A stretch of DNA of 62,974 bases, counting the filler, from Globobulimina sp. (Eukaryota): assembly GCA_003354225.1 (NCBI GenBank). It is 26 parts of 26 records of this genome, joined end to end, with 100 filler letters (N's around TTAATTAATTAA, not from the genome) between each part and the next. Parts side by side here need not be neighbours in the genome. Positions count along the whole stretch, not along the records: positions 50,953 to 53,277 come from PIVH01007377.1; 25 more parts are not named here. The stretch is one strand, 5' to 3'. The notes under the pieces were generated by a model. The model was given only the letters and a program-made list of their open reading frames with translations, had not been told where the DNA came from and ran no database searches. Below, piece after piece: positions 50,853-56,172 of this stretch (positions are counted from its first letter, which is position 1; each line of letters begins with the position of its first letter). Position numbers and translations under genes: made by a program.

Positions 50853-50952
50853 NNNNNNNNNNNNNNNNNNNNNNNNNNNNNNNNNNNNNNNNNNNNTTAA
50901 TTAATTAANNNNNNNNNNNNNNNNNNNNNNNNNNNNNNNNNNNNNNNNNNNN

Positions 50953-52045
50953 TTTATACTTGGACTCTTTCTGCGCGTCCAACAATTCTTCATTTTCCTC
51001 GGTGATCTCCGTTAATTTATCCGTCAATACCTTGATCTGCGAAGTTAACGACTCACTGCGAATCCGCGTAGAACGATTGATCAATATCGCAATGGGAATC
51101 TTCCAATGCCCGCACATGCCTTCATACTCAAATAAATGCACCATATCACCGTCTGTCAACACTGCATAATATCTAGAAATGCATTAGAAATTAATATAAT
51201 TATACAGCGTGGGAATAAAGTGTTAACTTTGCTTTTTTTGGACATTTTAAATGAGCGCGGCTCCATTTCCAGTTTTTAAGCTGTAACACCCAAATCTCAT
51301 CCGATAAACCAGAGTTATTTTTGTTAGTTCCTTTTTGTTTGCCGCCGAATATAATGATATACGTCTGTTGGAAGACAACGCAGCCAAAAAAATACTGTTT
51401 GTACGGCATTTTGAACTCTTTTAATTTTTTCCATTGGATTTCGGGATGGATGTCGCAAATATAAATGGTGTCTAAATATTTTTTTAATTTGATGGAGTCG
51501 TTGCCACCAAACACCACAATTTGCGCGTTATGCGAGTCATTTGCCTGCAAAACGATGGAGGAGTGTCCAGCCGGCGAAGGTTGGATCATTTCGTGTTCGA
51601 TGAATTTCTGTTTCATGGTATCCCATATTAAATGGCGATCTTTCTCGCTGCCGCCAATGACATGGAACGCGCCTTTGTGAACTAAGGAGGATGAAAATTT
51701 GCCATTGCCGACGATGGATTGTTTGGCTTTTTTCTTGCATTTTGTGACTAATTGTTTATGGACATCGAACTCTACGAAAGTTTTATCTGTACCGTCATAC
51801 AAATATATTTTGCCAGTCTCGCGATCAGCTGCAATTGTATGGAATTTTATATTTATCTCGGTTGGGTATGGTATATACGGACAAAATTTATCTTTTTCAA
51901 TGTCATATTTTCGTAAATATTCATTTTTGCCGTATGGACTTAATATAATCTCATTCTCACTTAAAATTACCGGTTTTGCAAATGTTTTTGTGGGCGATTT
52001 CGCGCAGCGAATCCAGTCTGATTTTTGCTCGACTCTACGAGCCAT
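50953..52045 (-). CDS. Kelch-like beta-propeller protein with C-terminal coiled coil (3' truncated)
   Basis: FHVIGG, IVVFGG...IYICD...W, IIIFGG...IWVL...W. 55-nt intron 51227-51173. Confidence 0.85.
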
Positions 52046-52117
52046 TACTTTACAGTTTTTCGAATTAAAGTTTTAGTAAAAAAACACCAACTTACTCAAC
52101 CACAACCAATACCGAAT

Positions 52118-52942
52118 ATGTGCGACGGCTCTGGATTAACACCACATTTAAGTGGATCAAAAGGATCAGGATCCTTCGGATGCGCACCTTCAGTTTAGTT
52201 TGACAATCCATATTCTGAATGTATATCACTTCAATTTTAGGTTACATGCCGCCAACTTCTTCGATTTATCGACGATTTCACAGTAATTGATATTCGCGAA
52301 GAAGCTGAATGTAAAAATGATGATCAAAAAGAGTATATTAAAAATGTTGTATTTATCCCAATGGGAAAAGTGCTGTCCGGAGTATTTCTTAGTTCTGACG
52401 AAGCTGATGATTTATTAAAAAAAGGATCAAAAGTTTGTTTTGTATGTCCCCGCGGAGGGAGAGCTAAAACAACCGCAGATTGGTTTTATTCGTCAAATGT
52501 TGATATTAAACCATTTTATTTACGAGGCGGATTAAATGAATTTATGGCCCAACAAAAAGGGAAAATTGTGGTTGATGATGATTTTTTAATGATATTATCC
52601 CATTTAGAGGATGATCCGGAAAAAGTTGGTGTTGGATTACAACTTTGTGTGGCTGCAGCAAATAAAGGAAAAACGGTTACTTTGGTGTTAATGCATAATG
52701 CCACGAGATTAGCAACAAAATCTTATGCTAAAAGTAATAAATTAGTCTGTCCGCCACCGCTGAAACCGTGGACTGAATTATTGCAAAAAATTATTGATAA
52801 ACAGGGGAATATTTATTGCTGTAATACCTGTTTAAAAATAAGAAAAACTGCGGATGAAGATTTAATTGATGCAGCAAAAAGAATTAAAGGACCGGATGTT
52901 ATTGATATGAAGGAATTTTGTAAAATGAATTTCATGATGTAA
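52118..52942 (+). CDS. Rhodanese - DsrE/DsrF-like fusion protein (258 aa), one intron
   Basis: Exon 52118-52192, 48-nt GT-AG intron, exon 52241-52942. Rhodanese: VIDIREEAE, FIPMG, VCPRGGRA, YLRGGL. DsrE-like: HLEDDPEK...VTLVLMHNATRLA...ELLQKIIDKQGNIYCCNTCLKIR...DLI. Confidence 0.85.
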
Positions 52943-53377
52943 CTACTAACAATACCATGTACAGTAACTACTAATAACTAATAGTAATATTTTTTTTTAC
53001 AGAGGATGTCCGCGCCGATACGTTTAGATCCTGACTGACTGTTTTCATACTACTTGCGTCGACTTAAGCTCAGCTGCGTTGATTAACTGCTCTTTAATAG
53101 CAGACATTTGGGAGCTACTTTTTGTCTGCTTAAGTCAAAAGAAAAATTGCTCGAAATATTTTACCAGCTTTAACAGAAAATGAACCATCCTCTCAGGAAA
53201 AGACGATCCCAATTATTAGTAAGTGGATACGTTAGAAAATGTAGCACCCACTACATCCATACAGATATTATTAGCATNNNNNNNNNNNNNNNNNNNNNNN
53301 NNNNNNNNNNNNNNNNNNNNNTTAATTAATTAANNNNNNNNNNNNNNNNNNNNNNNNNNNNNNNNNNNNNNNNNNNN

Positions 53378-55702
53378 ACCAAGTGATGCAGACACTTCAA
53401 CAAGAACAAAAGGTTCAAAGGGCAGATGATAATCAGAGTCGCGGGTCTTCTGAGCAAGCCAAAGCGGTTAATGAGACAACATCAGAAAAACAGGTACGAC
53501 TTATTGCACTTTATTTGTCCATAATATACACAGCCTACGTTTGTCCATGCATACATATGTAGCCATAGACAAACAGCCATCGTCTGTAACATCCAGTGTA
53601 TCCATGGTAGCAACAGCGGCATCATCATCATCGTCGTCGACCTGCTCCATAAATTACCTGTCATCTGCGAGCAATCACAGTTCTTTCAGTTCCAGTGTCG
53701 TCGCCAAATTAGAGGCAAAATTAGATGATGCATCCCAGTGTTCAGTGGCCAATGATTGCAGCTGCAGTCACCCAACAGCGCCAACAACAAAATTAGAATT
53801 AGAGACAAAATTAGAGACACAATTAGATGATCCCCCCAGAATGCCGTCGAAATGCAGCATACGCACCGTCCGATTGATTATAAATGCACCTGTATCAAAG
53901 CCGATATTTAAGCTAATATTGCAACAAAAATGTATACCAAATCCCACGGCACAGAGTTTTGAAAAAATATTTGTACGCTGTCATAAGTCTTATTACCATC
54001 CGAGCGCCACCGTGATTTATGCGCATTTTGTTAATTTTGAGGATAGAAAATTTAACCAATGCCGGCTGGACTTATTTGATTTCAACCCCTATGCTACGCA
54101 TTATAATTACATAAGTCATAAAGCAGCGAGAAACACAAAAAACATTATCGATTTAATTGGCAATAAGTTCGGATTGATCGCGTTGGTTAATGGCGGGTTT
54201 AAACAGTATCCAAAGATCGAGGTTCCCGTGGAATATTTATCGAAAATGGTGAAGATATGCTTGCGGTGCAAATTAAACGAAGCCGAGAGCAGGAAACGAG
54301 TTTGCAAATATTGTCTGGCGGAGGAGATCAATGATCGAAAGAAGATTGCTCAATATTATAAGCACCCGAATAATAAAGCAAATTCTAAATCGAATTTCCA
54401 GATCGAAGCAGATTTAATTAAGCTCAAAATCGAACCGCATCTAATCCCGACCCCGCTGTATAAGTCAGAGTGTCATGCATTAAAAAACGGCAAATGTACG
54501 CGGCAATGTTGTACTTTTGTCCATAATCCCAAGGAAAAACAGTTTGGAAAGACATTAATGCAAATCCAAAGAGCTGCGAACCAAAAGAAATATGCCACAG
54601 CAATGTCACAATACGAGTTAAGCAGTTATCAGACGATTGGTTTGCAATTCAAATATAGACGCATTATTTGTAAGTTTTATGAACAAAAATTGAAATATGG
54701 CGCACCAATTGCAATGGTCGATAATGAAAGCAATTGCAATTATATCACGAAGGAATTAGTTAAATGTAAGGTGCAGTTGCATTTAATTCCATTAGTGTAT
54801 AAATCCGATTGTAGGGAGGAAAGATGTCGCGGGAGATCTAGATCCGGCAAAATGTGCTCCTTTGTTCACACCCACAATGATCGCGTCTTTGGTGACATAT
54901 TATGGCGCATAAAGTGCGTTGCCAGAAATAAATATGAATCCGCGTCCACGTCCGTGCATTCGCAGCAGTCCATGCCTGACGAGAAGCAGTTATTGTTTGA
55001 TGGCGATATGGACGAAAAAAAAGACAAACACGAATGGAATAGGTCGCCGATAGAAAGAGAATGGGGATATGCCATTCGACCGTACATAGAAGCAGTTAAT
55101 GAGGAGCGAGCCGCGGAAATTAAAGAATTAGCTGCCTGGAGCATAGATGCAGGCCATATTGCACTCAAAATAGAGACTGTAAAGTGTGTGAAAAATGTGG
55201 AAGGCCGAGTGTACGGATTATTTGTCATCTACGAAGATGACAAAGACGCCAAAATCACGCCATTTCGGACGTATATTAATTTCTTATTTCCCTGTGAATT
55301 TGATGTGGGATTAAGGACGTGTACAGCCGATGAAAAACCCAACAAACAACGAGATAAACAGTGCCCTGCGTGCTATTTTAATGTATGTGACAAAACCCAT
55401 TGGACGTTGGAGGATAACCGAATGGTATTAGCGCCAATCGACGGTGATTACGAAACGCACAATGATAGATTGCAAGGTGTTGTTGTCGAGAGATTGCCAT
55501 CGCGCAATCCCAAGAAAAAACGATACAAAGTAAAGATAGAAAAATATGGACTGACTGATAATATTACGGCGTGGTTGAAATTTGCAGTGGTCGCATCCAA
55601 GAAATTTAATAAAAACCATAGGAGCGATTTTGAAAATGTACACATTTCGTATAATCCGAGCAATGTCTGGCAGCAAATAGAAGATGTTTTGAAGGGTTTG
55701 GA
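53378..55702 (+). CDS. Large protein with two CCCH-like zinc-finger modules (internal fragment)
   Basis: Repeated HLIP..YKS.C...C...C.FVH...FG..L module. Probable in-frame intron 53494-53576. Confidence 0.78.
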
Positions 55703-56172
55703 NNNNNNNNNNNNNNNNNNNNNNNNNNNNNNNNNNNNNNNNNNNNTTAATTAATTAANNNNNNNNNNNNNNNNNNNNNNNNNNNNNNNNNNNNNNNNNN
55801 NNTATTGATTGTAGACGGATAAAATCAACTGAATTATCGATTTTACTTTCTTTTCACTTAAATGCACTAACTCTATTAAAATATACAAAAACTTGTTATT
55901 CATAGTTTTTTTTGCAAAGTTTGCTAAAAACAAAAACTTGAAGTTTGCGAATTTGTGTAATTATATTTCCGACGCCAGTGATAGTGCAAGGATGTCAGAA
56001 GATATTCGCTTGAGTCATTAATATTAAATAATGGTAAAAATAGCAACAAAAAAAGGTGACAAAATGTCCAAAAATAGTCAATTCCCAATAATTTGATGTG
56101 TGATATATTAATTGTTTAAGTGTTCAACAATAAAAATACAGATGATGGAGATATATATGATTATTATTAGAG

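Follow-up and report, generated by a model that had tools for sequence, protein, structure and literature searches.

The window analysed here, a stretch of 62,974 bases of the Globobulimina sp. assembly GCA_003354225.1, contains at positions 52118-52942 a gene that joins a rhodanese-like domain to a DsrE-type domain in a single chain. Twenty-six contigs, each 2324-2328 bp long, make up the window; they are placed in order of falling length and linked by 25 joiners of the form N44+TTAATTAATTAA+N44. Because the window was chained from separate contigs, the true neighbourhood of the gene is its own contig only (50953-53277; 2325 bp, G+C 36.5%), and findings that lean on neighbours across the linkers are unsafe. 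On this contig the rhodanese-DsrE gene lies on the plus strand beside a divergently oriented Kelch-repeat gene, and no second copy of it was found within the window. We conclude that the gene is foraminiferal and belongs to an unstudied family widespread among protists, which is probably a two-domain eukaryotic variant of the multi-protein sulfur relays of bacteria.

The gene consists of two exons. Exon 1 (52118-52192) opens with the ATG at 52118 and comprises 75 nucleotides (nt), or 25 codons, which encode Met-Cys followed by a Gly/Ser-rich stretch; exon 2 (52241-52942) holds 233 codons and a TAA stop (52940-52942). Between them lies a phase-0 intron of 48 nt (52193-52240; GTTTAG...TTTTAG, with GT..AG borders and 73% A+T), and the spliced product of 52118-52942 is a protein of 258 amino acids. 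The unspliced reading is closed by two TAG codons (52196 and 52238), both within the intron, and a plain list of open reading frames (ORFs) includes only 52361-52942 (193 amino acids), missing the first 65 residues.

Splicing was assessed with contigs, rather than reads, of public sequencing runs aligned to contig 50953-53277. Runs X6 and X7 come from one sample, are about 95% like the window and are guessed to be RNA; a further run, X8, is also RNA by guess only. In each of X6 and X7 there is one contig in which 52194 is connected to 52250 through 7 intervening letters, so that precisely 48 nt are missing. Those 7 letters, with the two preceding the joint, stand in place of the first 9 nt of exon 2; they vary from the window at three third-codon positions only, and the encoded Val-Thr-Cys is kept. 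An RNA-like contig spans exon 1 and the sequence upstream of it (52091-52194). Contigs of run X1 show no joint at the intron, and one of them extends into it up to 52228. The homologous proteins tell the same story as the joints: six of eight open with MCDG(S/T)GL(T/N)P and continue through ...APS straight into IT(C/R)RQLLRF, missing the 16 residues that the intron would encode, and the remaining two have a cut or mis-modelled N-terminus. Three homologues (P0001, P0003 and P0007) open with MCDGSGLTP, as exon 1 does. The 48-nt intron is therefore real, and it is removed in the RNA-like contigs. A preliminary description of this DNA, made from its sequence, had proposed the 48-nt GT-AG intron and the 258-residue product, with 65 residues skipped by the ORF track, and had suggested RNA as a check; the exon coordinates, the RNA-like contigs with their exact 48-nt loss and the homologues all agree with it.

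A fold predicted from 33 family sequences reached a predicted local distance difference test (pLDDT) value of 92.9 and a predicted template modelling score of 0.81; an earlier fold from 8 sequences was unusable (pLDDT 41.5). The rhodanese-like domain occupies 52256-52549 (exon-2 residues 6-103). It matches PF00581 at 23.9 bits against a curated cut-off of 22.2, and 30 of the 33 family members match it. Solved rhodaneses are found by the family profile (6mxv at E 4.9e-24; 3gk5 at E 1.9e-12), and a profile of 8 sequences run against solved structures returned weak rhodanese matches only and no DsrE. Foldseek places the N-terminal half of the model on the rhodanese 3gk5 (E 3e-5, TM-score 0.72), and its weaker matches include two other rhodanese modules, one from CoADR-RHD (3icr), the other from a fusion with a persulfide dioxygenase (5ve3). 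Catalytic rhodaneses carry a Cys that opens a six-residue loop, C-x-x-G-x-R. Here the loop is C-P-R-G-G-R (52445-52462), opened by Cys94 of the full protein (exon-2 C69); across the 33-sequence alignment Cys69 and Gly72 are at least 90% conserved and Arg74 is invariant. Judged by profile, predicted fold and Cys loop, the rhodanese domain is of the catalytic type.

The DsrE/DsrF-like domain follows at 52571-52939 (exon-2 residues 111-233). PF02635 scores 31.8 bits against a cut-off of 22.7 over exon-2 residues 118-215, and all 33 family members match it. The domain contains the motif C-C-N-T-C (52817-52831), with Cys218, Cys219 and Cys222; Cys219 is putatively the residue that binds sulfur, and Cys222 pairs with it in the CxxC. 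Cys219 (exon-2 C194) is invariant in all 33 sequences, and the conservation of Cys222 (exon-2 C197) is at least 90%. The model has Cys194 closing the strand 190-194, followed by the helix 195-200. Foldseek against the Protein Data Bank gave 10 matches at E<=0.001, namely eight DsrE-fold entries (1jx7, 3mc3, two chains of 3pnx, 2qs7, two chains of 2hy5, and 2pd2), the rhodanese 3gk5 and the designed protein cage 8uja. The DsrE-fold matches all have probability 1.00 and TM-scores (by target) of 0.62-0.86; the best are YchN (1jx7, E 2.7e-6) and 3mc3 (E 3.1e-6, TM-score 0.86). Both halves thus match what had been described beforehand, a rhodanese domain with a CPRGGR Cys loop and a DsrE/F-like domain with CCNTC: the Pfam scores pass their cut-offs, and the C-terminal half, for which the absence of any DsrE-fold hit had been named as one refuting outcome, matches 1jx7, 3mc3 and 2hy5.

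The C-terminal domain also has single-domain relatives. Among 1.84 billion representatives, a profile built from the foraminiferal proteins found 96 hits at E<=0.001, of which 24 reach E<=1e-10 and 4 reach E<=1e-30; about 45 of the 96 are proteins of roughly 115-170 amino acids with the DsrE part alone. Those with names include a 'DsrE family protein' of Psychrobacter, another from a gammaproteobacterial metagenome-assembled genome, and one protein from the euglenid Rhabdomonas costata. A profile of seven single-domain bacterial DsrE proteins aligns with the C-terminal domain over its full length (hhalign probability 99.9%, E 7e-34), in a register that sets CxxC on CxxC and LQL on LQF. The same bacterial profile matches 3mc3 at E 1.3e-4, with its first CxxC Cys on the 3mc3 Cys, and also YchN, which has C-K-T-C at the place of the CxxC. 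At the two bacterial single-domain loci examined (of ten found), the genes are PhoX, YgjP-like, Amphi-Trp, Pirin, YetF and CMD, with no rhodanese and no sulfur gene among them. In NCBIfam, the MSMEG_0572/Sll0783 family (TIGR04044) matched the protein below threshold, at 21.3 bits against a cut-off of 109.85, and was rejected.

Three copies of the protein were predicted as a homotrimer, without an alignment, at a score of 0.92 against 0.00 for the best of three controls, related oligomers having already been solved. The mark used for such assemblies is reached by 21 of 30 proteins with solved structures as pairs of one chain and by none of 23 solved as single chains, and is a rough guide here, with three copies instead of two; among eukaryotic proteins it is reached by 17 of 29, but by only one of the seven that lack an older solved relative. 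Across the runs, contact agreement was at least 79% and partner pLDDT at least 86. The confident contacts all fall within residues 114-233, including 194, 196 and 197, which puts the CCNTC motif at the predicted subunit interface. A ring of this kind is expected of DsrE-type proteins; as such rings have solved structures, the pass may reflect likeness instead of new evidence.

The closest relative of the window protein is from Globobulimina turgida (P0003; 86% identity; species names here follow EukProt). Next come a cluster of Bolivina argentea and Nonionella stella (79%) and another, containing a transcript of a Rosalina sp. (77%), while a second Nonionella stella protein, at 52% identity, indicates two paralogues in that species. 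These closest named relatives are benthic foraminifera, in keeping with the sediment protist envisaged earlier. Beyond the foraminifera, about 30 of the 96 profile hits are proteins of 242-306 amino acids that align over both domains; the same two-domain order occurs in about 30 further clusters at 50% identity. Members include the choanoflagellate hypothetical protein PTSG_10837 of Salpingoeca rosetta, a diatom 'Rhodanese domain-containing protein' of Amphora coffeiformis, whose diatom-type subgroup by itself accounts for 47 relatives at E<=1e-10, and Clim_evm87s156, which we take to be from Corallochytrium limacisporum. In Mastigamoeba balamuthi, a gene model of 1025 amino acids (P0034) has Rhodanese and DsrE domains followed by a class-V aminotransferase domain (PF00266, E 8e-31), and carries the source label molybdenum cofactor sulfurase-like. 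Other source labels in the family are 'hypothetical', 'Rhodanese domain-containing' and 'rhodanese-related sulfurtransferase/predicted peroxiredoxin'. To judge from these sequences, the architecture is present in at least four eukaryotic supergroups: Rhizaria, stramenopiles, Holozoa and Amoebozoa.

A second signature accompanies the shared domain order. In the 33-sequence alignment, a P-D pair near the C-terminus and a Cys immediately after the start Met are also at least 90% conserved or invariant. The Met-Cys start is present in 34 of 50 two-domain proteins; among the other 16, three have an internal Met-Cys behind an extension, two have the Cys further in (MACDG and MSSMLCDG), and in 11 the N-terminus is cut or wrongly modelled. 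The N-terminal Cys is separated from the rhodanese domain by a Gly/Ser-rich stretch whose length varies. A Met-Cys start is also seen in P0072, a protein of 284 amino acids with a THAP4-like haem-binding beta-barrel (PF08768, E 3.9e-33) and a similar rhodanese domain; it is another unstudied rhodanese fusion.

The history of the fusion was examined with a quick tree of the DsrE domain (87 rows), from which cluster duplicates were left out and eight rows were dropped as too short (P0003, P0006, P0008, P0045, P0048, P0067, P0107 and P0108). It recovers a foraminifer-like clade of 8 rows (support 98) and a clade of 31 rows with the other fused proteins (support 98); the two, together with 15 single-domain rows, form one group with support 95. 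This tree gives no answer as to whether the foraminiferal and the other fused clades are sisters. The shared domain order and Met-Cys start speak for a possible single origin of the fusion. The nearest single-domain relatives of the DsrE domain are bacterial, and the branching gives no verdict on a bacterial origin. The preliminary description had suggested a horizontally acquired or newly fused protein. The second of these does not hold: the fusion is not new in this foraminifer, since the same architecture is found in a diatom, a choanoflagellate, Mastigamoeba and many eukaryote-like sequences, and the domain order recurs with Met-Cys in Salpingoeca rosetta, Amphora coffeiformis, Mastigamoeba balamuthi and about 30 more clusters.

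Among described systems the nearest is CstA of Staphylococcus aureus, which likewise has a rhodanese module and a DsrE-type module in a single chain. It is a multidomain sulfurtransferase of the cst sulfide-oxidation operon and can strip persulfide from the cysteine desulfurase SufS, according to the part of PMC5480029 consulted. A protein-atlas search, which provides a lead only, gave as nearest to the window protein Bacillota proteins of about 350 amino acids with Rhodanese, TusA and DrsE_2 (score 0.75). In CstA, TusA stands between the rhodanese and DsrE modules. No such domain was detected in the window protein: TusA (PF01206) has no match at E<=1 there and none at E<=0.01 in any of the 33 relatives, so the protein is not of the CstA type. 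Unlike the family described here, CstA is also bacterial and operon-encoded, and has no conserved Cys after the start Met.

The DsrE3 carriers (DsrE3A, and DsrE3B and DsrE3C of sHdr systems) resemble the C-terminal domain in fold (TM-score 0.86 to 3mc3) and in the aligned Cys. In the accessible portion of PMC11094781, 3MC3 is identified as DsrE3A, all DsrE-like proteins are given one conserved sulfur-binding Cys, these DsrE3 proteins are homotrimeric, and sulfur exchange is demonstrated between the rhodanese-like Rhd442 and DsrE3C. The same text describes adjacent Cys83-Cys84 in HdDsrE3C, one of the pair mattering in vivo without binding sulfur; the window protein likewise has an adjacent Cys-Cys, and a homotrimer is predicted for it. 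The DsrE3 carriers are, however, separate small prokaryotic proteins that partner TusA in dissimilatory sulfur oxidation, whereas the DsrE domain here belongs to a eukaryotic protein, where it is fused to a rhodanese and contains a CxxC. Bacterial single-domain DsrE proteins of about 120-124 amino acids (e.g. Psychrobacter WP_028858380) have the G-x-P-F-K-P motif, the CxxC and the LQL/LQF ending in common with it, but these proteins, named 'DsrE family protein' or 'predicted peroxiredoxin', lack a rhodanese domain. Escherichia coli YchN (1jx7) has the same fold with a CxxC at the same place. TusBCD and DsrEFH also have the fold in common, chains A and B of 2hy5 being matched, yet they consist of three paralogous subunits (D/C/B or E/F/H). 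With one DsrE-like domain and no paralogue within the window, a DsrEFH/TusBCD heterohexamer was rejected.

By analogy with these systems, we consider it probable, at roughly 0.6, that the protein, one member of an uncharacterised protist family, works as a sulfane-sulfur relay around a trimeric core of DsrE domains. What the analysis shows is the gene structure with its splicing, the two folds, the conserved cysteines and the spread of the family; the mechanism is proposed from the two domain families. In this reading a nuclear gene of a foraminifer-like protist encodes a cytosolic protein of 258 amino acids composed of a flexible Met-Cys arm, a rhodanese domain with Cys94-P-R-G-G-R and a DsrE fold with Cys219-x-x-Cys222. 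The DsrE domains would form the trimeric core, with the rhodanese domains outside. Cys94 would accept sulfane sulfur from thiosulfate, polysulfide, or low-molecular-weight or protein persulfides, and the persulfide sulfur would be handed to Cys219 within the same particle. From Cys219 the sulfur might pass to an acceptor, or the persulfide might be resolved by Cys222 of the CxxC. A single chain would then perform the rhodanese-DsrE sulfur exchange that bacteria split among separate proteins. If the Mastigamoeba model is a single gene, its cysteine-desulfurase-like domain also points to sulfur mobilisation.

Several observations weigh against this interpretation. Function rests on domain analogy for every member of the family. 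The window protein exceeds the Rhodanese Pfam cut-off by only 1.7 bits, with the family profile giving a much stronger result. The mapping of C194 to the active Cys of DsrE is transitive, running from the protein through its bacterial relatives to 3mc3, and a direct hhalign of the family against Escherichia coli TusD was rejected, with a probability of 0.9% and a misregistered alignment. A CxxC is unusual among classical DsrE carriers and would suit a redox role equally well. The trimer pass may reflect the memory of the model, because oligomers of the DsrE family (3MC3, 2HY5 and 1JX7) are already solved. The Mastigamoeba protein is a gene model and possibly two merged genes. Finally, the RNA status of X6 and X7 is guessed, and both runs represent one sample.

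The main rival follows from the second cysteine. The protein could be a persulfide or thiosulfate reductase instead of a carrier, in which the rhodanese Cys takes sulfane sulfur, the CxxC dithiol frees H2S and becomes a disulfide, and thioredoxin or glutathione recycles that disulfide; its role would then be redox control or detoxification. The second CxxC Cys is at least 90% conserved in the 33 members and is invariant in the seven bacterial relatives, YchN, the top fold match, has C-K-T-C at the same site, and the DsrE-like carriers described in the available part of PMC11094781 have a single conserved Cys. Some relatives are labelled 'predicted peroxiredoxin' by their sources, but this is an automatic label. 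The additional Cys of HdDsrE3C, which contributes in vivo without binding sulfur (PMC11094781, same portion), indicates that extra cysteines are compatible with carriers. The computed evidence separates neither chemistry from the other, and overall we regard a reductase as possible, with perhaps one chance in four assigned by judgement to it.

The conserved N-terminal Cys on its Gly/Ser arm may itself be a functional switch, acting either as a swinging third persulfide station that carries sulfur from the rhodanese to the DsrE site and back or, after removal of Met, as an O2-sensitive N-degron. We put this forward as a speculative and rather improbable addition to the relay. If the degron version were true, the relay protein would accumulate under hypoxic, sulfidic conditions only, and a switch of either kind would be a protist-wide oxygen- or sulfide-gated device for sulfur handling without a studied counterpart.

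The neighbouring Kelch-repeat gene lies on the minus strand. Its first coding exon (51228-52045; PF24681 at E 1.3e-14 and PF24981 at E 3.6e-11) is followed by an intron of 55 nt (51173-51227; GT..AG, or CT..AC on the plus strand) and by a next exon (50953-51172) that is open to the contig end. One contig each of X6 and X7 joins 51172 to 51228, removing the 55-nt intron, while X1 contigs read through it unspliced. The spliced Kelch frame runs on into the ORF 50905-51162, with a coiled-coil-like tail, up to the contig end; the plain Kelch ORF (51200-52045) has a false end at 51200, within the intron. Since the X6 and X7 contigs join across both introns, the contig carries two eukaryotic genes that are each spliced, and with foraminiferal relatives closest, the earlier view of an intron-containing, host-looking eukaryotic gene is borne out. 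So is the distance given to the Kelch gene: the spacer between the divergent start codons (52046-52117) measures 72 nt. RNA-like contigs of both flanking genes extend into it, a sign that the promoter may be bidirectional and very compact.

At the other edge of the contig, word depth in run X1 climbs from about 4 through 80 and 1384 to 2798 toward the contig end across 53059-53277, with many loose ends, and this segment looks like a high-copy repeat. A short ORF from 53180 has no Pfam match. In the next contig, an open frame of 737 amino acids (53541-55754) nearly fills the contig and contains Cys/His clusters and Ser runs; it has no significant Pfam family (best E 0.0074).

Two further explanations concern the gene itself. 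The first takes it for contamination, bacterial or other, or for a dead remnant, in a fragmented assembly. The contig is merely 2325 bp long, the contigs of the window are unrelated, with G+C from 26% to 44%, and DsrE is mainly a prokaryotic family whose closest single-domain relatives are bacterial. This explanation was rejected as highly improbable: two spliced genes share the contig, the frame is intact with all catalytic residues retained, identity to transcripts of three foraminiferal genera is 77-86%, and the protein has the Met-Cys start of 34 of the 50 two-domain relatives. The other, that there is no intron and TAG is read as an amino acid in one continuous frame of 274 codons, could appeal to a 48-nt length that keeps the frame and to the fact that the only stops in the intron are two TAG codons, while the gene terminates with TAA, but read-through of 52193-52240 is scarcely credible and was rejected, as the X6 and X7 RNA-like contigs lack exactly these 48 nt, none of the eight homologues has the extra 16 residues, the borders have the GT..AG form and the adjoining Kelch gene loses a second intron of comparable length; removal of the intron makes the in-frame TAGs intron sequence, with no altered genetic code.

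It had been allowed beforehand that the fusion might prove both common and already characterised in eukaryotes. It is common in protists, and we found no sign of characterisation: no study of the rhodanese-DsrE family turned up among the papers listed from the literature searched (subscription journals and supplements lay outside it, and results for DsrE with protist or foraminifer were swamped by DsRed), nor did any paper on PTSG_10837. The foraminifer papers PMC11736642 and PMC13561418, in the portions covered, mention rhodanese or thiosulfate sulfurtransferase and never DsrE. In the searched literature, work on DsrE-type carriers concerns bacteria and archaea. We add a protein in which rhodanese and DsrE are fused and the cysteines form a fixed set; it is encoded, spliced and apparently transcribed in foraminifera. 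The family offers a simple system for rhodanese-to-DsrE transfer within one polypeptide, and the Mastigamoeba protein, if it is a single transcript, would tie it to cysteine-desulfurase chemistry. Benthic foraminifera inhabit anoxic, sulfidic sediment. If the single-chain sulfur relay proves true, it would be a concrete piece of the way in which foraminifera handle sulfide and thiosulfate.

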